Shown piece after piece: positions 1 through 13,196 of a DNA stretch of 13,196 bases (position 1 is the first letter of the stretch; each line of letters opens with the position of its first letter). The position numbers and the translations under genes were made by a program. The notes under the pieces were generated by a model. It searched no databases. It was given only the letters and a program-made list of their open reading frames with translations, and had not been told where the DNA came from. Source of the stretch: a virus; IMG/VR virus record IMGVR_UViG_3300045988_146093. One strand, 5' to 3'.

Positions 1-30
1 AAAGTACCCCGTCCTCGATAGCAAGCAAGT

Positions 31-127
31 CACTTTCCCACTTTAGCATGGTAAAGTGCTAAAGTGCTAAAGTGATAAAGCAAGACAGCAATGCTTTAGT
101 GTAGTAAAGTGTTAAAGCGGTGAAGCG
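31..127 (+). repeat. Terminal iteron array based on the octamer (G/C)TAAAGTG
   Basis: Tandem GTAAAGTG, CTAAAGTG, CTAAAGTG at 51-74. A second triplet GTAAAGTG, TTAAAGCG, GTGAAGCG at 104-127. Inverted copies CACTTT at 31-36, CACTTTA at 39-45 and CTTTAG at 94-99. CACTTTA-N6-TAAAGTG forms an inverted repeat around 39-58. Confidence 0.85.
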
Positions 128-194
128 AGTACAAATAATTGGACAGTTGGCGAGTACAAATAATTGGACTGATAAAGTGTACAAATAATTGGAC
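125..194 (+). repeat. Three direct repeats of GTACAAATAATTGGAC with 25-bp period
   Basis: GCGAGTACAAATAATTGGAC at 125-144 and 150-169. GTACAAATAATTGGAC at 179-194. Repeat starts at 129, 154 and 179. Confidence 0.9.
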
Positions 195-302
195 AGATTA
201 GAAAATAAAAATAATACCCTTACGCAATAAAGAGCAAAAATATTTAGTTAAATAGAATTAACAAATACATAAAAGAAAAATATAATGTTTACAATTTATT
301 CA

Positions 303-331
303 TTGACAATTGCGGTGTGGTGTGATATACT
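303..331 (+). promoter_or_regulatory. Near-consensus sigma-A type promoter inside the left ITR, firing inward
   Basis: -35 TTGACA (303-308), a 17-nt spacer, -10 TATACT (326-331), with TG at 322-323... preceding as TGA-TATACT (extended -10 like). An AT-rich tract lies upstream at 200-300. The expected TSS is near 338. Confidence 0.75.
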
Positions 332-340
332 ATATATAGA

Positions 341-373
341 GTTAAGGGAGAGGAACAAAAGAAAAACCTTAAC
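341..373 (+). other. Leader stem-loop at the 5' end of the ITR-promoter transcript
   Basis: GTTAAGG (341-347) and CCTTAAC (367-373) are reverse complements with a 19-nt purine-rich loop, starting a few nt after the predicted TSS. Confidence 0.5.
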
Positions 374-388
374 AAACAAAATTTTAAA

Positions 389-406
389 AGTTGCAATATG
401 ACAACT
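389..406. promoter_or_regulatory. Degenerate copy of the 18-bp palindrome (AGTTGCAAtatgaCAACT) at the left ITR boundary
   Basis: 4 mismatches to AGTTGCAACGTTGCAACT, all within positions 9-13 of the motif (window 397-401). It is positionally equivalent to the perfect copy at 12791-12808. Confidence 0.7.
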
Positions 407-421
407 AGAAAGGATTTTATC

Positions 422-1489: not shown

Positions 1490-1699
1490 ATGTGGAGTTC
1501 AATAATAGTTGCAGTGCTATCCCTGATAGGTACATTTATTGGCACTTATTCTGGGTTTAAGTTGACAGAATACAGGGTACAACAGCTGGAAAAACGAGTA
1601 GCAGAGCATAACAACTTTGCAAGGAGATTACCAGTTGTTGAAGAACAGATAAAGGTAATTAATCATCGTTTGAACGATTTAGAGGTGAAAGAAAAATGA
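1490..1699 (+). CDS. N-terminal TM plus coiled-coil protein associated with the lysis cassette (holin or antiholin-like)
   Basis: The ORF track gives 1442..1699. ATG 1490 has SD AAGGTG and avoids overlap with the 53-aa ORF. The product is MWSSIIVAVLSLIGTFIGTYSGF followed by a heptad-like charged region (QQLEKRVAEHNNFARRLPVVEEQIKVINHRLNDLE). An ATGA overlap links it to the endolysin start. Confidence 0.6.
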   Translation: MWSSIIVAVLSLIGTFIGTYSGFKLTEYRVQQLEKRVAEHNNFARRLPVVEEQIKVINHRLNDLEVKEK

Positions 1700-2364
1700 C
1701 GTTTAAGGAATATATTTCTAAAACCCTAGGAAAATCAATCGATTTTGACGGAGTTTACGGCTTTCAGTGTTGTGATTTAGTCAACGATTATATGCAGAAA
1801 TGTTTTAATATTTTTACATATTATCCATACAATTTCAATGCACAGCAGTATTTCACAAGGTTCAATGAGGTATCAGCTCTTGTAAAGAATTTTACAAAAA
1901 TTTCAAATACTCCTGATTTTGTACCAATGCAAGGTGATATTTGTATTTTTAAGTCGGCTGACAATATTGGTCATATCTCAATAGCAACGGGCGAGGGAAA
2001 TACAAGCTATTTTTACAGTTATGACCAAAACTGGAACGGGCACAATTTTGTAGCAAAAGAGAAGCACACGTATACTAATTTTTTAGGTGTTCTGAGGTAT
2101 AAAGGCAATTCACTTGACATTTCAGGACTAAAACGTGGAGATAATAACGCAGGTGTTTACGCTTACAAAATGATGTTAAAATTGGCAAAAACTTGCAAAA
2201 TAATTAGTACAAGCGTTGATTTTAACGGAATATACGGCAAAGGCACTGAAAAGGCTACAAATGAGATTTTGCGAAAGCTGAAAAAGAAAGAGAATGGAAT
2301 AGCAGGAGTAAAGTTAATCAACGCACTTTATGAAGCTATTCTTGACAAAATAGTTAATTTTTAA
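1696..2364 (+). CDS. Endolysin with an N-terminal CHAP domain and a C-terminal peptidoglycan-binding-like repeat
   Basis: CHAP signature YGFQCCDLV (catalytic Cys) and GDICIF...IGHISIATGE (catalytic His). The C-terminal segment GDNNAGVYAYKMMLKLA...DFNGIYGKGTEKATNEILRKL resembles the PG_binding_1 pattern. SD GAGGTGA. Confidence 0.85.
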   Translation: MTFKEYISKTLGKSIDFDGVYGFQCCDLVNDYMQKCFNIFTYYPYNFNAQQYFTRFNEVSALVKNFTKISNTPDFVPMQGDICIFKSADNIGHISIATGEGNTSYFYSYDQNWNGHNFVAKEKHTYTNFLGVLRYKGNSLDISGLKRGDNNAGVYAYKMMLKLAKTCKIISTSVDFNGIYGKGTEKATNEILRKLKKKENGIAGVKLINALYEAILDKIVNF

Positions 2365-2874: not shown

Positions 2875-2904
2875 ATAACAAAATCGGCAAAACGTGGTGG
2901 CAAA

Positions 2905-2922
2905 AGTTGCCACGTTGCAACC
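2905..2922. promoter_or_regulatory. Palindrome variant AGTTGCcACGTTGCAACc upstream of the portal gene
   Basis: 2 mismatches to the consensus. It ends 19 nt before ATG 2942, with SD GAAAGGGG in between. Confidence 0.8.
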
Positions 2923-2941
2923 GATTGAAAGGGGTGAAAAA

Positions 2942-3898
2942 ATGGGTTCAAAAATAAAGCCGTGGAACTGGAGCGAGTTCGGAGTTTCAAACATAGACAA
3001 AACACAACTGACAAGCTACTATTACAAAATGTTGCTAAATCGTGTTATTAATATGTTTACATGGGGAAACCTACCAGACACCATTGATGAGCAAGTAATG
3101 AACTTTTGGTTATTTGTAACAGGAAGAGTTGTATTTACAGAATTTAACGGAAAGTTATATGCACTAAATGGAAATTATGGTGGCTATCCTAACGAGTATT
3201 ATTTACCTACTGAATTTGTTATTGCTAATCCAATTTTAGGAAGTAAAGTTGTAAAGTTGGACGTTGACGGAGTGGCAATGTTTAACAGTGATACGGATAA
3301 GTACCCAACGCAGGGGTTAGTAGGTGGTTTATATCCTATACTAACACTAACGGCAAATATGTTAGCTGATTGTGTGGTCACAATTTCCAGTGCATTGAAA
3401 AACGGCAGAGTTCAAACAGCGTTTTTGTGTAAGGACGATACAGTACGAATTGCAGGAGAAAAAGTTCTACAACAGTTATATAACGGCAACCCAGCTGTTA
3501 TGATTGACGACACAATTTTAAATTGTATTTCGCCTATCAAAATGGCAGATAATACAAGTGTTGCTACAATCCTACAGCAGACAATTGAAACGTATCAATT
3601 TTGGCTTGCAAATTTTTACAACTCAATAGGAGTAAACGCAAACTTTAACATGAAACGAGAACGGCTAAACACAGCAGAAGTCAATATTAATGATAGTGCA
3701 TTGTTTGTAAATGTTATTAATATGTTGAATAACCGACAGCAGGCACTTGAAAAAATTAACAAAATGTTTGGTACAAACATAACTGTTGAAATTTCTGAGG
3801 AATGGAAAGACTTGACAGAAACTGAGGAAACCCCTACAGAGGAAGAACCTACAGAGGAAGAGGGAAAAGACAATGCGGCAGATAATAACGCTGAATGA
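2942..3898 (+). CDS. Portal / head-tail connector (phi29 gp10 upper-collar family)
   Basis: The ORF track gives 2894..3898 from GTG. ATG 2942 has SD GAAAGGGG and leaves the palindrome non-coding. By-eye matches to phi29 gp10: [14 protein letters not shown] vs [35 protein letters not shown] vs [40 protein letters not shown] vs REEACEKINELYGLNVKVKF. Acidic C-terminal tail. Confidence 0.9.
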   Translation: [318 protein letters not shown]

Positions 3899-4552: not shown

Positions 4553-4570
4553 AGTTGCAACGTCGCAACT
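4553..4570. promoter_or_regulatory. Palindrome variant AGTTGCAACGTcGCAACT upstream of the capsid module
   Basis: 1 mismatch at motif position 12. It ends 20 nt before ATG 4591, with SD GGAAAGGAG in between. Confidence 0.88.
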
Positions 4571-4590: not shown

Positions 4591-4878
4591 ATGCAAAAAG
4601 TGAGAAGTCCAACATATGCAGAGAATTACGTCAATCTTGCAAGAGCCGTTGTGCTAAAAGTAATAATAGACACTCTCCAAAATAAGGAAGATTTAAGGAA
4701 ATATATTTTATATAGTGATGATTTTGTGTTTTGGTTACGCCTTGCAGATTGGTTAAAATATGAAAATGTTATTAAAGATAAGTTTTCATATTTTAAAGGG
4801 ATTGACAGAACGTTAAAAAAGAAACTAAACACATATTACCGTCTTAAAGGTGAAGAAATGAAAAGAGGTAAATTATAA
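4591..4878 (+). CDS. Hypothetical 95-aa protein; scaffolding role possible from position only
   Basis: Strong SD, and its stop overlaps the MCP start (TAATG). It occupies the position of phi29 gp7 (98 aa) directly upstream of the MCP. Its aromatic and hydrophobic composition is not typical of scaffolds. Confidence 0.35.
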   Translation: MQKVRSPTYAENYVNLARAVVLKVIIDTLQNKEDLRKYILYSDDFVFWLRLADWLKYENVIKDKFSYFKGIDRTLKKKLNTYYRLKGEEMKRGKL

Positions 4879-6026
4879 TGAAAGTTACACAAATTGCCAC
4901 AATTTTGAATGAAGCACAAAAGGAAATAATCGGTGAGAGTGCTATAACAACGGAAAATCTTGAAAACGTTGTCGACATGGGCAAGCAGATACTTGAAGCG
5001 ACAGATGTTGACAATTACGTCCGCAAGCTGATTGACAAAGTCGGCAGAATGATTTTTGTCGATAGAGTTTATAACTCAACAGCTCCTGACATTTTGACAG
5101 ATAGCTGGGAATACGGGTCAGCAATGCAGAAAGTTCGTTGTGAAATGCCTGACGCTGTTGAGAATGACAGCTGGAAATTGACCAACGGTCAGAGTTATGA
5201 CCCATTTGTATTCACTGCACCTGACGTTCAGTCAAAATTTTATGACAGTAAGGTGACATACGAAGTGCAGATGTCATTTACAGAAATGCAAGTCAAGAGT
5301 GCATTTAATTCACCTACTGAAATGAACAGCTTTTTTGCAATGATTGAAAATCGTATCAGATTTAAGCTGACTTTGTCAAATGATATACTCAAAACAAGAA
5401 CCGTTAATAATCTCATAGCAGAAAAGATACACAGCAAAAACAACGTTGTTAATCTTTTGGCAATGTACAACGCAGAATTTACACAGACCCTAACAGCGGC
5501 ACACGCTCTTATGGATAAAGATTTTCTAAGATACGCAATCGGAAAAATCAAGGAGTATATCAAGTACATTCAGCGTCCGTCAATGTTGTTCAATGACGGC
5601 GGTTACACAACTTTCACCCCAGAAAGTGACATGAAAATGGTGCTTTTGTCAAGATTTGTAAATACGGCTGAGGTTTATTTACAGAGTGACACGTTCCATA
5701 ATGACCTTGTGAAGCTGAGTGGTTATTCTGAGGTTCCATACTGGCAGGGCAGTGGAACGGGTGAAACGTTTGATTTTGCAGAAATTTCAAAAATCGATGT
5801 TACAACTGCAAGCGGTAACGCAGTATCTCAGACAGGCGTTATCGGTACTATTTTTGACCGTGACGCTTGCATGGTATGTAACGCTAATCCAAGAGTTACA
5901 AGTATTTACAATCCAAAGGGCGAATACTGGAACTATTTTTATAAGTATGACGCAAGCTATTTCAATGATACCATGGAAAATTGTGTTGTATTTATAGTAG
6001 CAGACACAGCAAAAAAAACAGTATAA
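4878..6026 (+). CDS. Major capsid protein (phi29 gp8 family, HK97 fold, no obvious C-terminal Ig domain)
   Basis: SD AAGAGG. By-eye matches to phi29 gp8: NPKGEYWNYFYKYD vs NPRGLYWNYYYHVW near the C-terminus, and LIDKVGRMIFVDRVYNS vs LVDRIGLVVIRQVSLNN. At 382 aa it ends about where the gp8 core ends. Confidence 0.88.
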   Translation: MKVTQIATILNEAQKEIIGESAITTENLENVVDMGKQILEATDVDNYVRKLIDKVGRMIFVDRVYNSTAPDILTDSWEYGSAMQKVRCEMPDAVENDSWKLTNGQSYDPFVFTAPDVQSKFYDSKVTYEVQMSFTEMQVKSAFNSPTEMNSFFAMIENRIRFKLTLSNDILKTRTVNNLIAEKIHSKNNVVNLLAMYNAEFTQTLTAAHALMDKDFLRYAIGKIKEYIKYIQRPSMLFNDGGYTTFTPESDMKMVLLSRFVNTAEVYLQSDTFHNDLVKLSGYSEVPYWQGSGTGETFDFAEISKIDVTTASGNAVSQTGVIGTIFDRDACMVCNANPRVTSIYNPKGEYWNYFYKYDASYFNDTMENCVVFIVADTAKKTV

Positions 6027-6044
6027 CAAAATGATAGTTAAAAC

Positions 6045-6052
6045 GTTGCAAC
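6045..6052. promoter_or_regulatory. Extra half-site GTTGCAAC, 8 nt upstream of the full palindrome
   Basis: ACGTTGCAACC read directly. It sits in the MCP-tail intergenic region. Confidence 0.6.
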
Positions 6053-6060
6053 CCTAAAAA

Positions 6061-6078
6061 AGTTGCAACGTTGCAACT
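6061..6078. promoter_or_regulatory. Perfect 18-bp palindrome upstream of the tail module
   Basis: Exact AGTTGCAACGTTGCAACT. It ends 18 nt before ATG 6097, with SD GAGGTGA in between. Confidence 0.92.
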
Positions 6079-6597: not shown

Positions 6598-8642
6598 AAC
6601 TAAATACGGAAATATGGGGAACGGGTGAACAAATATCAGGTGCTCCACAAGGTTTTAAAGGATTAAGAGCAGATTTTCCAAGATTAGCTGAATGGATTGA
6701 TCAAGGAAAAGTTACACTAAACCAACATTTTGACCAATCATTTTTAATCGGAATAAATTTCAAAAATCCAAATTCTATAATGATGTGGTGTGATAGCTAC
6801 AATCGTGACCCCTCATTGAATACATTTTCTGACCCTATCGACACGGGAGTGTTTTTGGCAGGTACTGACGAAATGTCACGTTATGGCTCATACCCGGAAG
6901 TTTTACGGTGGAGAGTTGCATATGACCAAACAGAAACACCATATATCAATTATAAACCTCTTTTGAAATTTCCATTTAAAGGGCTGTGCTTTTTGCCAAT
7001 TATATATTCGTGTACTAACAAAGCAGTTACTAACCATTTACACAAGTTTTCAATAAATGATTATTATAATGGTGAAAATGAAAATACATACCCTTATATA
7101 GTAGGAATTGAATTATGTCCATATATTGGAAACGCAACTACAAGAGGGTTCTATTTAGATGGTTATATCGGTAGAATATCACCATGTATGTACGGGGATT
7201 TCCAAAATTTTAGAAAAGATACCTTATATACTAACGCCGAAATGTTTCCTATGGGTGGAAATTTATTTACAGACCGTTTAACATGGGGATTAATGAATGA
7301 AGATGTATACTATCATACAGGATTTAACACATTTGATTGGATAGCAAACACTCCCTATGGTGAAAAATTATGGGAATTTGTGGCAGGAATAAGAGTGCAT
7401 ACACATTTTAAGGGAACTAAAAATGATATTTTAAAAATGTGTGCAAATACGGGGTGTTATTGTGCGTTATCTGAAAATGCGGCTAAACGTGATGATTTAA
7501 ATAATCCTAGTAACAATATAATTATTGGAAAAATGAGTGAAGATGGTTCAATTTCCGATACTGTTTTGCAAGGTGAGGATATTAAAGATAACACACAGCA
7601 AGACAAATGGAATGACCCTGACGACACAGGAAACGGATTTGACGGCATTGAAAATACTGACCCAAATGACTACACAGACAAAATAGATTTGAATAAGCCT
7701 ACATTATCAAATGTAAACGTTTTTAACCGCAGTTTTGCAGTTAATGCAAATACTGTAAAAAATTTGGCTGATTTTTTATGGAACGCTGACGAAACTAAAT
7801 TTCAAGAAATTGTAAAAGGATTAGCATTAATGGGTGAAAATCCAATGAATGGTATAATTGATTTGCGTTTATTTCCGTTTAATGTAGCTTTGAAAAATTC
7901 TGCCATGCAAGCAGAACCCATTGTAATAGGCAGAACAAACACGGGTGTAAACGGTATCAAATTAACTGAAAATGTAAACAGTTTGATTGACCTAGGTGAA
8001 TGCACATTTTTCACTAAATTCAAAAATTTCCTAGATTATGAACCATACACGACAGCACAACTATATATTCCATATATTGGCGTTGTACCAGTTTCGACAG
8101 CTGAATTTATGGGGCATAGAATATCGGTTAAAATGATAGTTGACTATACCACGGGGGCAGGAACAGCAATTGTATTTAAAGACGATATACCATTTATTTA
8201 CAGAAATGGTGTAGTAGGTGTATCAGTTCCAATGACTGGAAATGACAGTGCAAGCTATGCAAATACAGTTATCGGAAATGTAGTTAGTGGTGCTATAGGC
8301 GGTGTAACATCAATTGCTAACGGAAATATAGGCGGTATGGTTAGCAGTGCTGAAAAATTGTATAGCGGTTTTGCAACTGGTACAAATTACCAAGAAGCAA
8401 GTGCAAGTTCTCCGTCTGTTGCAACGTGGCAACCGCAAAAATGTTATTTCATAATTGACCGTCCTATTTTAAATGTGCCTGATAATTACGGGCGAACGAT
8501 TGGTTTTGCGTGTGAAAAAACTGGTAAACTATCAGATTTTAAGGGTTTTACAGTTGTTAGCAACCCTGAAATAAATTTCAGATGTACAGACAGTGAAAGA
8601 CAATATATAGTAAATATGTTACAAGGCGGTGTATTTGTATGA
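6594..8642 (+). CDS. Tail knob / distal tail protein: gp9-like C-terminal half preceded by an unrecognised domain of about 330 aa
   Basis: C-terminal similarity by eye to phi29 gp9: YEPYTTAQLYIPYIGVVPVSTAEFMGHRISVKMIVDYTTG vs [38 protein letters not shown]; a Gly-rich loop VSGAIGGVTSIANGNIGGMVSS vs VGMLGGGVSAGASAVG; and a terminal ...GFACEKTGKLSDFKGFTVVSNPEINFRCTDSERQYIVNMLQGGVFV block with the same layout as the gp9 C-terminus. I do not recognise residues 1-330. Confidence 0.7.
   Translation: MKLNTEIWGTGEQISGAPQGFKGLRADFPRLAEWIDQGKVTLNQHFDQSFLIGINFKNPNSIMMWCDSYNRDPSLNTFSDPIDTGVFLAGTDEMSRYGSYPEVLRWRVAYDQTETPYINYKPLLKFPFKGLCFLPIIYSCTNKAVTNHLHKFSINDYYNGENENTYPYIVGIELCPYIGNATTRGFYLDGYIGRISPCMYGDFQNFRKDTLYTNAEMFPMGGNLFTDRLTWGLMNEDVYYHTGFNTFDWIANTPYGEKLWEFVAGIRVHTHFKGTKNDILKMCANTGCYCALSENAAKRDDLNNPSNNIIIGKMSEDGSISDTVLQGEDIKDNTQQDKWNDPDDTGNGFDGIENTDPNDYTDKIDLNKPTLSNVNVFNRSFAVNANTVKNLADFLWNADETKFQEIVKGLALMGENPMNGIIDLRLFPFNVALKNSAMQAEPIVIGRTNTGVNGIKLTENVNSLIDLGECTFFTKFKNFLDYEPYTTAQLYIPYIGVVPVSTAEFMGHRISVKMIVDYTTGAGTAIVFKDDIPFIYRNGVVGVSVPMTGNDSASYANTVIGNVVSGAIGGVTSIANGNIGGMVSSAEKLYSGFATGTNYQEASASSPSVATWQPQKCYFIIDRPILNVPDNYGRTIGFACEKTGKLSDFKGFTVVSNPEINFRCTDSERQYIVNMLQGGVFV
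8417..8434. promoter_or_regulatory. Palindrome variant tGTTGCAACGTgGCAACc inside the tail knob CDS
   Basis: 3 mismatches (motif positions 1, 12, 18). It encodes S-V-A-T-W-Q-P. Confidence 0.6.
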
Positions 8643-9190
8643 TGAATGAACATTTTGCAAGCGGTTTAACAAATGAGCAATTAAAAGCTGAGATTTTAAG
8701 GCAAGGGCGTAAAGCAAATTTACGCCTAAACCAATTGAAAAAAAGTGGGTATTACAAGAAAAACCCTATAATTATGGCGAAATGGAATACATTTCTAAAA
8801 GAAAACAAATTTTCAACTAAAAATAATTTTTTCAAAACGGGTTCAAAGGACGAAAACCGTGCAGATTTGTTAAAACATTATGTACAGATTAGACAGTTTT
8901 TAGGGCAACAAACGAGTGTAGCTGACACGAAAAAAATCATACACAAACACGCTTTGCGTTTGGAAGTTGAAGATGATACCGTTGAACGTGTACTAGAATT
9001 TTATGGAAATAATTCAATTTTAGGACAGCTGTCTAATAGTGATTATGCACAACAATTTGTGCGTGATATGGTCACAAAGGGATTTAATGATGATGAAATT
9101 AATGTGGTGTTAGATACCCTTGAAAAATCTGCAAAAACTGAAAGTGATATGACAGACTCTATGAGAAATTTTCTACAAACATTAGAATAG
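8639..9190 (+). CDS. Putative terminal protein (replication primer)
   Basis: It lies directly upstream of the protein-primed polymerase, as phi29 gene 3 does relative to gene 2. It has a basic N-terminal third (RQGRKANLRLNQLKKSGYYKK, loosely like phi29 TP KNTKAKIARTKKKYG) and an acidic C-terminus. At 183 aa it is shorter than phi29 TP (266 aa). The homology is weak. Confidence 0.5.
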   Translation: MMNEHFASGLTNEQLKAEILRQGRKANLRLNQLKKSGYYKKNPIIMAKWNTFLKENKFSTKNNFFKTGSKDENRADLLKHYVQIRQFLGQQTSVADTKKIIHKHALRLEVEDDTVERVLEFYGNNSILGQLSNSDYAQQFVRDMVTKGFNDDEINVVLDTLEKSAKTESDMTDSMRNFLQTLE

Positions 9191-9206
9191 TTGCAACGTT
9201 GCAACT
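9189..9206. promoter_or_regulatory. Perfect 18-bp palindrome upstream of the DNA polymerase gene
   Basis: Exact match. It overlaps the TAG stop of the preceding ORF (9188-9190) and ends 22 nt before TTG 9229, with SD AAAGGGG in between. Confidence 0.92.
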
Positions 9207-9228
9207 ATTTTGTAAAGGGGTGTAATAG

Positions 9229-11367
9229 TTGATAAATGTAAATGATTTTGATTTTAATATTCTAAAAAATAGTAATTTACAAACAGTTACAACCCGTACA
9301 CGGGATAATCAATATATTGAATATTATAATACCCCGTTTGCGTTTGATATTGAAACTAGCTCATTTTATGACAGCGAAAACAAAAGAGCGTGTATGTATA
9401 TTTTTATGTTTGCATTAAACGGAAACTATGTATACGGCAGGACATGGGAAGATTTTGATTTTACATTGAATAAGTTAAAAGAGGTACTACAATTAAATGA
9501 ATACAGAAGAATTATAATATATATTCACAATTTAGGTTATGAATTTCAATTTCTAATCGGTCATGAGCAGTTCAAAGACGTTTTTGCAAGAAATGCTCGC
9601 CACCCTATTAAGTGTACTATGAATGACTGTTTTGATTTGAAATGTAGTCTAATGCTGAGTGGTATGAGTTTAGCTAAAACCGCAGAAGATTTGACAAGTG
9701 TAAAAATACAAAAATTAACAGGTGATTTAAACTATAAACTATTAAGAACATGGAGAACTCCACTTACCAAAAATGAATTGGCATATTGTGAGCATGACGT
9801 TAAAATTTTACACTATTTTATTCTTGAAGAAATGAGTAAAAATGATAACAATATCACAAAAATCCCATTAACAAAAACGGGGTATGTAAGAAAATATTGC
9901 CAAAACTACATTAAGAAACATACATATTATCCAAAATATAGAGAAAAAATTAAGAAGATAGCCCCAGTTGATAAAGATTTATTTTGCCTATTGCACAAAA
10001 GTTTCATGGGTGGATATACTCATTCGAATTATATGTATGTAGGAATGGTATTGGAAAATGTTGCTAGTATAGATTTTACAAGTTCCTATCCGTCCGTTAT
10101 GATACGAAAAAAGTACCCCATGCAACCATTTACAAAACCCCGTATAAAGGATTTAAAAGATTTTAGATATTGTATTAAAAATTATCCGTGCGTTTTTGAA
10201 GTTGAATTAACTAACGTTACCGCTAAAAAATGCAATCATATTTTGTCACGTTCAAAATGTTCTGTTTGTGATAATGCTGTTGTTGATAATGGACGAATTG
10301 TATCAGCAGATAGGATATTTACATATTTTACAGATGTTGACTTTAAGGACTTTGAACAATTTTATTCTTATGAACATTTGTCAATTGGCAATTTTTACAC
10401 GTCTAGTTATGGATATTTGCCAAAACAGATTATAGAATGTGCGTTAAAATTTTACAACGACAAAACCACCCTAAAAGGTGTAGCAGGAAAAGAAGTTGAG
10501 TATCTAGTCGGCAAAGGTATGCTAAATAGTTTATTTGGAATGTGCGTAACCAATCCTGTTAATGATGATATTGTTTTTAATGGCAAAGAATGGAACACAG
10601 AAAAGAAAGATATTTCAGAAGCATTACAAGAAAATTACATAAAGAATAAAAAACAAGTATTAGTATATCAGTGGGGTGTGTGGATTACTGCATGGGCTAG
10701 GCACGAACTTTTTAAAGGTATATTGAAAATTAATGAAGATGTTATTTATTGTGATACGGATAGTATAAAATTCTTAAACTATGAAAATTATGAAAACTGG
10801 ATAAATGAATATAATAAGAATTGTATTAATGAGATAAACAAGGCTTTAAATTATTATGAAATCGATTTGAATTTAGCTAAACCAAAAACAATTAAGGGCA
10901 TTAAAAAACCGTTAGGGGTATGGGATTTTGAGGGAATTTATTCAAAATTCAAGACTTTAGGTGCAAAGCGTTACGCTTATGAACAAGACGGGAAATTTAA
11001 TATTACAGTTTCAGGACTAAATAAAAAATGTGCCGTTCCGTACATAGTTGCAACGTCGCAACCGTTTGAATTTTTTGACAATGAAATGTATATACCGAAA
11101 GAGTATACGGGCAAAAATACATTGACATATATTAATGACCCATACAAAATTATGGTAAAAGACTATCAAGGAAATTATGCCGAGGTATCTGAAAATAGTT
11201 ACATACATATGGAAGAACAGGATTATAACATGGCACTATCCGAACAATTCATATATTATTTAATGTGTGGTACAAATTTCGGTAGTGGTGCAAAAGAGCA
11301 TACATTATTTGAGAAAAGCCAAGAATTGGCTACAAATTTCTGGGAGTGTGATTTTAATGAGAAATGA
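9229..11367 (+). CDS. Protein-primed family-B DNA polymerase (phi29 gp2 type)
   Basis: All hallmark motifs are present: ExoI FAFDIETSS; ExoII YIHNLGYEFQFL; ExoIII YCEHDVKIL; motif A DFTSSYPSVM; motif B KGMLNSLFGM; WGVWITAWARH (phi29 MGVFITAWARY); motif C VIYCDTDSIKF; KxY GAKRYAY. The start is TTG with SD AAAGGGG 8 nt upstream. Confidence 0.97.
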   Translation: MINVNDFDFNILKNSNLQTVTTRTRDNQYIEYYNTPFAFDIETSSFYDSENKRACMYIFMFALNGNYVYGRTWEDFDFTLNKLKEVLQLNEYRRIIIYIHNLGYEFQFLIGHEQFKDVFARNARHPIKCTMNDCFDLKCSLMLSGMSLAKTAEDLTSVKIQKLTGDLNYKLLRTWRTPLTKNELAYCEHDVKILHYFILEEMSKNDNNITKIPLTKTGYVRKYCQNYIKKHTYYPKYREKIKKIAPVDKDLFCLLHKSFMGGYTHSNYMYVGMVLENVASIDFTSSYPSVMIRKKYPMQPFTKPRIKDLKDFRYCIKNYPCVFEVELTNVTAKKCNHILSRSKCSVCDNAVVDNGRIVSADRIFTYFTDVDFKDFEQFYSYEHLSIGNFYTSSYGYLPKQIIECALKFYNDKTTLKGVAGKEVEYLVGKGMLNSLFGMCVTNPVNDDIVFNGKEWNTEKKDISEALQENYIKNKKQVLVYQWGVWITAWARHELFKGILKINEDVIYCDTDSIKFLNYENYENWINEYNKNCINEINKALNYYEIDLNLAKPKTIKGIKKPLGVWDFEGIYSKFKTLGAKRYAYEQDGKFNITVSGLNKKCAVPYIVATSQPFEFFDNEMYIPKEYTGKNTLTYINDPYKIMVKDYQGNYAEVSENSYIHMEEQDYNMALSEQFIYYLMCGTNFGSGAKEHTLFEKSQELATNFWECDFNEK
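11046..11063. promoter_or_regulatory. Palindrome variant AGTTGCAACGTcGCAACc inside the polymerase CDS
   Basis: 2 mismatches (motif positions 12, 18). It encodes I-V-A-T-S-Q-P, the same frame as the 8417 copy. Confidence 0.75.
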
Positions 11368-12448
11368 ATACTATTCACTAAAAAAGATTAATAAGTTAAA
11401 TGCACTATACAATTTAATTATAGGGCAACGTTCAAACGGTAAAACTTATGCAGTGTGTGAGCAGGAAATAAAAGGTTACTTTAAAGAAGATTTTCGGCTT
11501 GCGTATATAAGACGATATGATGAGGAAATAATGCCCAAAAATATACAGAATTTATTTAAACCGCATTCGGCTTTAATTGAAAAATTATCTAACGGGCAGT
11601 TTAACAGCACTGTATACAAGAATAGGGAGTTTTTCCTATATAATACAGATACGGAAGAAAAAAGCGAACAAAGTTTTTGCAAGTGTTTTTCGCTTAACGC
11701 ATGGGAACGTACAAAAGGTGCTGATAATGGCTACTTTAAATATATATTATTTGACGAATTCATGACCCGTTCGTTTTATCTTAATAATGAATTTGTTATA
11801 TTTACTCAACTTTTATCTTCTGTTATGCGTGATAGAGATAACACTATTATTTACATGATTGCAAATACTGTCAATCAATACTGCCCTTATTTTGCTGAAA
11901 TGGGTTTAGGCAAAATTTCAGATATTAAACAGGGTGACTTGAAATTATTTACATATGGTGATAGTGAATTAACCTTAGCTTTAGAATACTCAGACAGCAG
12001 AGGTCAAACTGGAAAAGTTAGTAAATACTTTGCGTTTGACAACCCACAATTGAAAATGATAACCACGGGGCAGTGGGAGATTAAAAACTACCCACACGCC
12101 CCATTTAAGATTCAAAAGGAAAATATTGTATATAGAGCTTATATATTTTTTGATAGTGACATTATAGCTTGTAATATTATACATTATAACAATAACGTAT
12201 TTCTATTTTTTAACATTCAAACAAAAACGGAAAATCTCGATTTAAAAAAGAGGATTGTATACAGTTTTGAAACTGATACGAACCCCCTACACGTCCAGTC
12301 ACTAGCAGAACAGCCGACAGACGTACATAAACTTATTAATAATTTAATAACATTTAATCGTGTGTTCTATGCGGATAATTCAGTAGGTGAAATTGTTAGA
12401 AACTGGATAAACGCACAAAGCAAGCACGCTATTAGCATAAGGGCATAA
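11357..12448 (+). CDS. DNA encapsidation ATPase (phi29 gp16 family)
   Basis: The ORF track gives 11267..12448. ATG 11357 overlaps the polymerase stop by 11 nt and gives MRNEYYSLKKINKLNALYNLIIGQRSNGKTYAV, collinear with phi29 gp16 (...YDRILNFVIGARGIGKSYAMK). Walker A is GQRSNGKT and Walker B is YILFDEF. Confidence 0.92.
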   Translation: MRNEYYSLKKINKLNALYNLIIGQRSNGKTYAVCEQEIKGYFKEDFRLAYIRRYDEEIMPKNIQNLFKPHSALIEKLSNGQFNSTVYKNREFFLYNTDTEEKSEQSFCKCFSLNAWERTKGADNGYFKYILFDEFMTRSFYLNNEFVIFTQLLSSVMRDRDNTIIYMIANTVNQYCPYFAEMGLGKISDIKQGDLKLFTYGDSELTLALEYSDSRGQTGKVSKYFAFDNPQLKMITTGQWEIKNYPHAPFKIQKENIVYRAYIFFDSDIIACNIIHYNNNVFLFFNIQTKTENLDLKKRIVYSFETDTNPLHVQSLAEQPTDVHKLINNLITFNRVFYADNSVGEIVRNWINAQSKHAISIRA

Positions 12449-12487
12449 AAATAACCCCGTGAGTTTTTTCTCACGGGGTTATTTTTT
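12449..12487. terminator. Bidirectional rho-independent terminator between convergent genes
   Basis: AAATAACCCCGTGAG (12449-12463), loop TTTTTT, CTCACGGGGTTATTT (12470-12484): a 15-bp stem with a GC core, flanked by an A-run upstream and a T-run downstream, so a U-tract follows the hairpin on both strands. Confidence 0.88.
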
Positions 12488-12488
12488 G

Positions 12489-12773
12489 TTATATCACATA
12501 ATCCCTTAACACTGCTTGAATGTTTGTCATAGTAGGTTTTACATATTCCTTGTCGTAAACGTCACATAGTAAATCACTTATGTTTTCATATCTATTGTAA
12601 CCACTTAAAACTCTCTCTTGATTATCTAAAAACCACTCAACAGTTGCACAAGCAACTGTATTTGTTACAATATCAAATATAATCATTACAATTGGCTCAC
12701 CTGACTTATTTGCACTGTTATATCTGCCTACTGCCTTTTTAATTCCTTTAACCTCTGTACCATTAATTTTCAT
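12489..12773 (-). CDS. Hypothetical 94-aa protein, the only minus-strand gene, driven by the right-ITR promoter
   Basis: From the ORF track. SD GAAAGGA lies 9 nt upstream of the ATG. It is bracketed by the perfect palindrome/ITR promoter and the bidirectional terminator. I recognise no family motif. Confidence 0.75.
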   Translation of the reverse strand: MKINGTEVKGIKKAVGRYNSANKSGEPIVMIIFDIVTNTVACATVEWFLDNQERVLSGYNRYENISDLLCDVYDKEYVKPTMTNIQAVLRDYVI

Positions 12774-12790
12774 AATAATCGTTCCTTTCT

Positions 12791-12808
12791 AGTTGCAACG
12801 TTGCAACT
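12791..12808. promoter_or_regulatory. Perfect 18-bp palindrome straddling the right ITR boundary
   Basis: Exact match. Its left half (12791-12800) lies outside the perfect ITR and its right half inside. It ends 17 nt from the minus-strand start codon at 12773. Confidence 0.92.
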
Positions 12809-12823
12809 TTTAAAATTTTGTTT

Positions 12824-12856
12824 GTTAAGGTTTTTCTTTTGTTCCTCTCCCTTAAC
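12824..12856 (-). other. Leader stem-loop of the right ITR transcript (mirror of 341-373)
   Basis: Identical sequence by ITR symmetry. Confidence 0.5.
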
Positions 12857-12865
12857 TCTATATAT

Positions 12866-12894
12866 AGTATATCACACCACACCGCAATTGTCAA
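12866..12894 (-). promoter_or_regulatory. Near-consensus sigma-A promoter inside the right ITR, firing inward
   Basis: Mirror of 303-331. On the minus strand it reads TTGACA (12894-12889), a 17-nt spacer, TATACT (12871-12866). Confidence 0.75.
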
Positions 12895-13002
12895 TGAATA
12901 AATTGTAAACATTATATTTTTCTTTTATGTATTTGTTAATTCTATTTAACTAAATATTTTTGCTCTTTATTGCGTAAGGGTATTATTTTTATTTTCTAAT
13001 CT

Positions 13003-13166
13003 GTCCAATTATTTGTACACTTTATCAGTCCAATTATTTGTACTCGCCAACTGTCCAATTATTTGTACTCGCTTCACCGCTTTAACACTTTACTACACTA
13101 AAGCATTGCTGTCTTGCTTTATCACTTTAGCACTTTAGCACTTTACCATGCTAAAGTGGGAAAGTG
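13003..13166 (-). repeat. Mirror copies of the terminal iteron arrays
   Basis: GTCCAATTATTTGTAC at 13003-13018, 13028-13043 and 13053-13068. CACTTTA(G/C)-type octamers at 13070-13093 and 13123-13146, with inverted copies out to 13166. Confidence 0.88.
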
Positions 13167-13196
13167 ACTTGCTTGCTATCGAGGACGGGGTACTTT

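Follow-up and report, generated by a model that had tools for sequence, protein, structure and literature searches.

Composite, promoter-bearing inverted terminal repeats in a probably complete phi29-like phage genome from the human gut

Phages of the phi29 type carry inverted terminal repeats (ITRs) of very different lengths. That of phi29 itself measures 6 bp and those of its Bacillus relatives 6–16 bp (PMC6266182), while 25–30 bp have been reported for podoviruses of Clostridium perfringens (PMC3362512), 18 bp for Salmonella phage astrithr, 55 bp for Amedibacillus phage AD70P2 and 171 bp for Acinetobacter phage Phanie. Longer repeats are found in Streptococcus phage Cp-1 (236 bp as annotated and perfect, 352 bp at 97.7% identity when measured), Mycoplasma phage P1 (350 bp, perfect) and Lactococcus phage asccphi28 (577 bp annotated, 609 bp at 98.7% identity). 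Here we describe the ends of the IMG/VR virus record IMGVR_UViG_3300045988_146093, a stretch of 13,196 nucleotides referred to below as the window. A first-pass annotation, made from its letters alone, had read it as a phi29-like genome of the protein-primed type with an unusually long ITR of 396 bp, each copy of which holds a complete inward promoter and a leader hairpin, launches the same transcript as the other and couples the replication origin physically to an early promoter. We put at about 0.85 the probability of the joint explanation that the window is the complete linear 13.2-kb genome of an uncultured human-gut phi29-like podovirus with protein-primed replication, and that its ITR is a composite end module with an inward promoter.

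The phi29-like, protein-primed nature of the genome is borne out by its gene content. The window encodes a protein-primed polymerase, for which phi29 DNA polymerase was the sole match in a sequence search of the PDB (E = 1.4e-7), together with a Phi29_MCP capsid protein, a connector and a gp16 ATPase (Table 1), and it ends in ITRs with a reiterated terminal nucleotide. Fifteen of its 16 genes are on the plus strand; the single minus-strand gene is an open reading frame (ORF) of 94 aa. A megablast comparison of the whole window with cultured phages gave no match, and at the protein level its nearest cultured relatives are the 11–12-kb phages of the Astrithrvirus group (polymerase 42%, capsid protein 43–46% identity), followed by Amedibacillus phages. 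A protein identical to ORF1, the first gene behind the left ITR, is recorded on a stool scaffold of the Human Microbiome Project, which indicates a human-gut source; an exact-sequence look-up of the capsid protein matched no contig. Full-length relatives of the endolysin were found in metagenome-assembled genomes (MAGs) of Ruminococcus and Eubacterium. Taken with the gut origin, these relatives make a Clostridial Firmicute the probable host, which would also suit the sigma-A-type promoter and the strong Shine-Dalgarno (SD) sequence described below.

Self-alignment of the two ends showed that positions 1–396 are the perfect reverse complement of 12801–13196. Both the 396-bp length and the proposed share of 6 percent of the genome (2 × 396/13196 = 6.0%) were thus correct, and a perfect inverted repeat of this length, anchored exactly on both ends, cannot be put down to chance. 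A repeat search extended the arms to 1–414 and 12783–13196, at 99% identity. Read base by base, the arms mismatch only at 397, 398, 400 and 401, within the left copy of a 16-bp palindrome that recurs throughout the genome; past these mismatches the homology resumes through TAGAAAGGA, the ribosome-binding site, and stops 8 nt short of the start codons (ATG 422 and ATG 12773). The figure of 396 bp is therefore set by a four-base mutation cluster, private to the window, that interrupts the left palindrome. This tight cluster of four substitutions at 397–401 (CGTTG to TATGA) is absent from the other aligned ends and creates an upstream in-frame ATG at 398, from which gene callers give a product of 225 aa in place of 217 aa.

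For comparison we used 18 related contigs obtained in a scan of IMG/VR, with polymerases 93–95% identical to that of the window, and 69 further uncultured relatives from a profile-based scan, with polymerases 39–50% identical (contigs are designated by L numbers). The palindrome is present in 14 of the 15 other complete ends aligned (two with one substitution), the exception being the left end of L016 (L016_L), where the sequence departs into another first gene. The repeat of L002 and L014 takes in the start codon (410 nt).

Termini are nearly complete in 11 of the 18 close relatives, eight of which have two identical ITR copies, perfect over 327–410 nt and 87–94.5% identical to the ITR of the window. 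Contigs L001 and L008 start with the same AAAGTACCCC as the window, and L010 has two additional bases before it. At both ends of L002, TCCGATCT, the 3′ end of the Illumina adapter, directly abuts AAAGTCCCCC, and at the right end of the distant relative L082 the adapter remnant CGTGTGCTCTTCCGATCT adjoins AAAGGT; an adapter joined directly to terminal sequence identifies a physical end of the DNA. Such remnants, useful as end markers, are at the same time a contamination of public IMG/VR records. Metagenome assemblers can generate terminal inverted duplications, and among the close relatives L006 carries a 119-nt terminal inverted repeat built of coding sequence of the 94-aa gene, and L001 has left and right ITR copies that disagree, the left one being devoid of the 25-bp repeats present in the window; both are probably chimeric or mis-joined assemblies. 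Even so, we reject an assembler-made duplication as the source of the ITR and regard it as very improbable, because ITR copies are identical within a genome and divergent between genomes. The same repeat, starting from the same AAAGTA, recurs in many independent assemblies from several samples, each with its own variants at both ends, adapters abut the terminus in L002 and L082, and ITRs are present in cultured relatives with sequenced ends. The pattern of identity would instead be expected if the termini are copied from each other, by protein-primed replication or by recombination. Long ITRs are known as well from replicons that end in covalently closed hairpin telomeres, in the style of N15 or poxviruses. 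We consider such ends in the window next to impossible: it encodes no protelomerase or resolvase, its polymerase, capsid protein, connector and ATPase are all of the phi29 type, and the reiterated terminal AAA and the blunt ends ligated to adapters fit open, protein-primed ends.

Within each ITR the predicted promoter has the hexamers and the spacing first proposed for it. With 11 of 12 matches plus the TG of an extended −10, it ranks first among 204 sigma-70-like candidate sites on both strands of the whole genome. Across ten distinct genomes, five of the six −35 positions, eight of the nine of the extended −10 and all 13 of the start region are invariant, and the spacer is constant in length with only 6 of its 17 positions invariant. 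Conserved hexamers separated by a spacer of variable sequence and fixed length are the pattern of a promoter in use. Transcription would start near 337–339 (mirror 12858–12860), probably early in infection. Upstream, a near-invariant AT-rich block (200–302) holds a second promoter-like site, whose function is less certain because its spacer length differs by 1 nt in two relatives. When an outward promoter, such as those of Cp-1 and asccphi28, was sought in the ITR, one weak 9-of-12 site was found.

The leader behind the promoter would be about 85 nt long and consist of a 5′ stem-loop, a palindrome copy and the SD sequence. The stem-loop begins 3–4 nt past the predicted start and, among relatives, keeps an invariant stem around a loop of variable length; the palindrome would form a second hairpin, as RNA a 7-bp stem with an ACGU loop, and the leader RNA as a whole folds with z = −3.9. 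A structured leader had been correctly foreseen, but as a single hairpin: the second element, the genome-wide dispersed palindrome, had been missed. The claim of identical inward transcripts holds only as far as base 396, for about 60 nt; of the first 80 nt, 76 agree, and the genes that follow differ. Since origin and promoter both lie within each ITR copy, their physical coupling stands as described.

The outer part of the ITR has the features of an origin. Sliding-back initiation on a 3′-TTT template has been described (PMC5175343), and the terminal AAAGTA, with TTT at the 3′ end of the template, would serve it, in agreement with the first reading of the AAA run. Termini of sister lineages read AAAGGTA... 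or GGGATA/GGGTTA..., always with a triple reiteration, which fits the same mechanism (PMC5175343). The terminal hexamer is indeed identical to that of phi29, as had been pointed out, but this is weak evidence of relatedness: the termini of sister lineages differ, the phi29 polymerase matches at only E = 1.4e-7 and, once AAA is required, only GTA is left to match. Inward of the terminal core, the unit TAAAGTG(C), which resembles the terminal AAAGTAC, occurs about ten times, directly or as its complement, in the zone 30–128, where 64 of the 99 columns are invariant in ten relatives; positions 30–75 form an imperfect 46-nt palindrome (single-strand DNA fold, z = −4.07). The element CACTTTA-N6-TAAAGTG is found also in L022 (14–114), with a polymerase only 36% identical. 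The 25-bp array that follows varies between 0 and 4 copies among genomes about 90% identical, and other lineages have different iterons at the equivalent place, e.g. TTGGCACGGTTTTTG four times in L088. The subterminal phased repeats, palindrome and iterons probably serve to load a protein that binds the origin or organises the DNA. The ITR would then be a composite end module made up of the origin, the phased repeats and iterons, the AT-rich block with a strong sigma-A-type promoter, and the leader.

Table 1. Coordinates of the features in the 13,196-nt window.
Feature	Position	Strand	Remarks
Left ITR	1–414	+	Perfect to 396, imperfect to 414; SD included
Terminal origin core	1–29		5′-AAAGTACCCC..., template 3′ end TTT; presumed protein-primed initiation site
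Subterminal zone	30–128		8-bp-phased TAAAGTG(C) units and inverted CACTTT; from repeat search
Three tandem 25-bp repeats	124–198		GCGAGTACAAATAATTGGACAG...; iteron-like; 0–4 copies among close relatives
Upstream promoter-like site	258–286	+	TTAACA-17-TATAAT; 11/12 matches; 27/29 columns invariant
Main inward promoter, presumed early	303–331	+	TTGACA-17-TGaTATACT, extended −10; TTGACA 303–308, TG 323–324, TATACT 326–331
Leader hairpin 1	341–373	+	GUUAAGG...CCUUAAC; 7-bp stem 341–347/367–373; SD-like GGGAGAGGA in loop
Left ITR palindrome, degenerate	390–405		GTTGCAATATGACAAC; additional to the nine copies
ORF1, 217 aa	422–1075	+	First gene after left ITR promoter; segment FNITKSTASRMRRV resembling a helix-turn-helix (HTH); acidic tract
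Palindrome copies (GTTGCAACGTTGCAAC family)	912–927, 2906–2921, 4554–4569, 6037–6052, 6062–6077		912–927 inside ORF1
Palindrome copies (GTTGCAACGTTGCAAC family)	8418–8433, 9190–9205, 11047–11062		
CHAP endolysin	1696–2364	+	Pfam/PHROGs
phi29-type connector	2894–3898	+	Phage_connector, 3.2e-18
Capsid protein	4878–6026	+	Phi29_MCP, 1.1e-54
Candidate terminal protein, 183 aa	8639–9190	+	Directly upstream of polymerase
Protein-primed family B DNA polymerase	9229–11367	+	Pfam DNA_pol_B_2, 2.7e-14; PHROG 1907, 4e-61; organellar/viral type
gp16-type packaging ATPase	11267–12448	+	Podovirus_Gp16, 1.6e-13
Bidirectional intrinsic terminator	12447–12486		17-bp stem; closes both convergent transcription units
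94-aa gene	12489–12773	−	Only minus-strand gene; sole cargo of right ITR promoter
Right ITR palindrome, intact GTTGCAACGTTGCAAC	12792–12807		18 nt upstream of ATG
Mirror promoter, presumed early	12866–12894	−	Would fire leftward into the 94-aa gene
Right ITR	12783–13196	−	Mirror of 1–414; block found at both ends of related genomes

Several points weigh against the joint explanation. All of it rests on metagenomic assemblies, and some of the related contigs (L006 and L001) have aberrant ends. In the window the left palindrome is mutated, so the two leaders are not strictly identical, and the near-consensus site at 258–286 could be the real start of transcription or an additional one. The terminal protein that would be bound covalently to the 5′ ends has a candidate gene backed by its position and by the weak pairwise similarity (E = 0.004) of its 183-aa product to an ORF at the equivalent position in Salmonella phage astrithr; family searches with this product gave no match. 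No packaging RNA (pRNA) was detected, an Rfam search of the window up to E 10 giving terminator look-alikes only. This does not exclude membership of the wider phi29-like group, because a pRNA is established only for the close relatives of phi29 (PMC11476376).

Seen against the described systems, the ITR is not unusual for the wider group and is long only in comparison with phi29 and its Bacillus relatives. The claim of unusual length fails because Cp-1, P1 and asccphi28 have documented promoter-bearing ITRs of 240–580 bp, and such ITRs occur widely in the clade of the window, where 23 of 37 uncultured relatives of at least 9.5 kb have end-anchored ITRs of 50–535 bp (e.g. 534 bp in L027, 535 bp in L071, 342 bp in L078 and 340 bp in L057). 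The length of about 236 bp that had been given for Cp-1 in support of that claim does match the GenBank annotation. Cp-1 (Salasmaviridae, Cepunavirus) also resembles the window in that its best sigma-70-like site (316–344) points inward from within the imperfect ITR, its mapped early starts PE1 (351) and PE4 (18993) each lie 351 nt from their own end, and a small leftward early operon occupies its right end. It differs in size (19.3 kb) and gene order, its proteins are only distantly related, an outward promoter is annotated in its ITR, and it has neither a dispersed palindrome family nor parS, the centromere-like site discussed below. Mycoplasma phage P1 (Delislevirus) is close to the window in size (11.66 kb) and ITR share (6.0% of the genome), with genes that begin at the ITR border and an annotated promoter in each ITR (227–260, mirror 11401–11434). 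Unlike in the window, its genes converge from both ends in two large blocks, its host has no cell wall and a simple sigma-70 scan fails to pick out its promoter. In asccphi28 too the ITR accounts for about 6% of the genome and inward promoters (P2 and P7) are annotated in the ITRs, but each ITR also has annotated outward promoters and terminators, and the genome measures 18.8 kb.

phi29 itself shares with the window the terminal AAAGTA, protein-primed replication, an inward early promoter (C2, at 125–159 nt from its right end) and a bidirectional terminator that separates the late operon from the early operon on the right; phi29, too, has dispersed sites, those of host parS (PMC2731898). The ends of phi29, with their 6-bp ITR, are asymmetrical, and its left promoter A1 points outward and makes pRNA; neither a canonical parS nor a pRNA was detected in the window. 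C2 is repressed by p6, a protein that also takes part in DNA replication (PMC11476376), and given this repression and the position of C2 near the right end, coupling of origin and early promoter was already known from phi29. The Astrithrvirus group (astrithr, Phanie and others) and the uncultured relatives match the window in size (11–13 kb) and in having a small inward operon at the right end. In Astrithrvirus and Phanie, though, the replication module is the first block at the left end, while in the window the replication and packaging module (candidate terminal protein, polymerase and ATPase; 8639–12448) comes last in the plus-strand array, some 9 kb away from the left promoter. The cultured hosts of this group are Gram-negative, in contrast to the gut Clostridia to which the endolysin relatives of the window point.

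The palindrome beside the promoter is a more consequential lead than the ITR itself. The perfect 16-bp palindrome GTTGCAACGTTGCAAC is present in nine copies when up to 2 mismatches are allowed (0.08 expected). In addition to the one in the ITR, copies immediately precede the SD sequences of the connector gene, of ORFs 4591 and 6097 and of the polymerase gene; most copies occupy the space from a stop codon to the following SD, and three are internal to ORFs, 160–310 nt ahead of the next gene. These positions are conserved in 18 relatives, and the 178 instances collected from 19 genomes differ almost exclusively at positions 6 and 11, which are related by symmetry. Such constancy of scattered copies, at 14 of the 16 positions, speaks for a reader that recognises the sequence. 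The more distant L022 has a palindrome of its own, TGTTCGACGTCGAACA, eight times in equivalent positions. A role as a promoter element was discarded, the internal −10 elements upstream of the copies being inconsistent. Compared by eye, the palindrome fits none of the consensus sites of cre, Cheo (LexA), the 0A-box or CIRCE. A scan of a genome collection with the palindrome as an 18-mer revealed no host, yielding about the number of single matches expected by chance and one mobile element. This element, L097 (MAG contig JAEDGP010000024.1, 1637–5681), has six copies of the palindrome of the window within 4 kb, bordered by A- and T-runs, and L106 has one at 5049. L097 encodes an unrelated integrase, topoisomerase, HicB and relaxase, is binned as Treponema sp., has a GC content of 34.5% and showed no protein similarity to the window by tblastx.

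Sister lineages have a well-known site in the same places. TGTTTCACGTGAAACA, present five times in L034 (180, 1293, 4235, 5578 and 12722) and four times in L058, is exactly the consensus chromosomal parS, the binding site of ParB/Spo0J (PMC5450999; bioRxiv 10.1101/724823). In L034 one copy lies in the ITR right after the −10 TGTGTATAAT, others between stop codons and terminators or SDs, and the slot at 4547 of L058 reads ...TGTTTCACGTGAAACAtagaaaggaa...ATG against ...GTTGCAACGTTGCAACtagaaaggaa...ATG in the window. Altogether, parS (TGTTNCACGTGAAACA consensus, at most one mismatch) was found in 30 of the 69 distant relatives, at 84 sites against 0.007 expected; 66 of the 84 are at most 400 nt from a contig end, frequently paired in tandem within each ITR at a distance of 42 bp. 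Contigs with TGTTTCACGTGAAACA or TGTTTCACGTGGAACA include L034, L058, L032, L030, L057/L059/L062 and L073–L094, some with tandem triples; in L073–L094 the sites are about 130–290 nt from each end. For phi29, five parS sites have been reported, and Spo0J contributes to the transfer of the genome into the prespore (PMC2731898); our scan of phi29 located four TGTTTCACGTGGAACA sites, one of which adjoins the gene 16 stop codon on one side and the terminator TD1 on the other.

Two readings of the palindrome were weighed. It may be a DNA site of the parS or operator class, read by a dimeric ParB-like or HTH protein of the host or of the phage (ORF1 being a candidate). Such a site would serve to tether the phage genome or partition it, or to silence transcription or act as a road-block to it, in the manner of the host parS sites of phi29. 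We hold this as a tentative possibility. The palindrome has the form of the class (16 bp, perfect, central CG, several copies per replicon; PMC5450999, bioRxiv 10.1101/724823), with GTT...AAC arms and a number of copies far above expectation, and its constancy favours a sequence reader over structure alone. Sister lineages hold exact TGTTTCACGTGAAACA in the same slots, in the ITR past the −10 and in the order stop codon, site, TAGAAAGGA, ATG; the many parS sites of relatives lie mostly near the ends, those of phi29 are used by Spo0J (PMC2731898), and an unrelated integrase/relaxase element holds the palindrome itself six times within 4 kb. On the other hand, no sequence in the window comes within 4 mismatches of parS, and the half-sites are 2 bp further apart than in parS. 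L022 has canonical parS plus its own palindrome, so equivalence of the two is not required. Pfam and other family and profile searches detected no ParB-like protein in the window, and the structure model of ORF1 is unusable.

Alternatively, the palindrome may act as RNA, a reading that we rate only slightly lower: an intercistronic stem-loop in sense transcripts, which would stabilise 5′ ends or processing sites or serve as a translational operator, and an intrinsic terminator for antisense or outward transcription. Its short stem and ACGU loop lie in 5′ leaders, 10–25 nt before the SD, and A-runs precede most copies, so that the opposite strand reads as a hairpin followed by a T-run. A terminator scan lists 4570–4553, 6078–6061 and 9209–9186 (minus) and 11047–11062 (plus). 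By their orientation, the ITR copies would halt transcripts that run outward into the origin; variants with T11>C form G-U pairs in the antisense RNA; and the copies of L097 sit at gene ends between their A- and T-runs. Yet ordinary terminators and stabiliser hairpins do not retain the same sequence across nine sites and an unrelated element besides, wobble pairing is incompatible with most variants at positions 6 and 11, three of the copies fall within ORFs, and the equivalent element of sister lineages is bona fide parS, a DNA site. A more specific form of the DNA-site reading, in which the palindrome is a re-specified centromere-like site that replaces host parS and is read by another ParB-like or HTH protein (host-encoded or ORF1), strikes us as conceivable but on balance unlikely.

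For ORF1, behind the left promoter, one source gives the name DUF3102 to a homologue, and 3 of 60 remote homologues match DUF3102 weakly. PDB sequence and profile searches and NCBIfam were uninformative for this protein, and its structure model, with a predicted local distance difference test (pLDDT) of 45, was poor and left aside; at its left end L022 encodes a lysozyme and not a homologue of ORF1. The left ITR copy would head a 12-kb co-directional array that begins with an HTH-like early protein. No other plus-strand site equals the score of the ITR promoter, and so the left promoter may feed much of this array, though internal promoters are also possible. Only one large intergenic region interrupts it (2365–2535, 171 nt), with conservation above that of its coding flanks. 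It has long-range complementary arms (about 2373–2399 with 2453–2482), which form a conserved helix in alignment folding with one compensatory change (ACGTT/AACGT to ACGCT/AGCGT in L004, L005, L007 and L014), and holds a variable 19–20-bp tandem repeat; in L002 an additional palindrome copy is inserted there. As a pRNA candidate this region was rejected, its single-sequence fold being no better than shuffled on either strand; it might harbour a promoter or a small RNA.

The 94-aa protein behind the right promoter is 38–96% identical among relatives, and unrelated genes occupy its slot in others. Its structure was modelled with high confidence (pLDDT 91.8), and a comparison with the PDB gave no neighbour; the only match in a viral library is one uncharacterised protein. 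A fast-evolving gene that would be first expressed suggests a part in host takeover or counter-defence.

Long composite ITRs with origin, iterons and early promoter are thus normal in the 11–13-kb phi29-like phages of gut and wastewater, among which the 6 bp of phi29 are the outlier, and the window adds a well-resolved example of a known design. The comparative data define promoter, leader and origin as targets in a very abundant uncultured phage of the human gut. If the palindrome is indeed a site of the parS kind, centromere sites borne on ITRs would be a general device by which small, nominally virulent gut podoviruses attach themselves to the segregation machinery of the host; a carrier state or entrapment in spores would then be possible, and the adjacent early promoter could be silenced. 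Should these sites recruit segregation proteins, the spore-entrapment strategy of phi29 would extend to gut phages and may help to explain the persistence of virulent phages.

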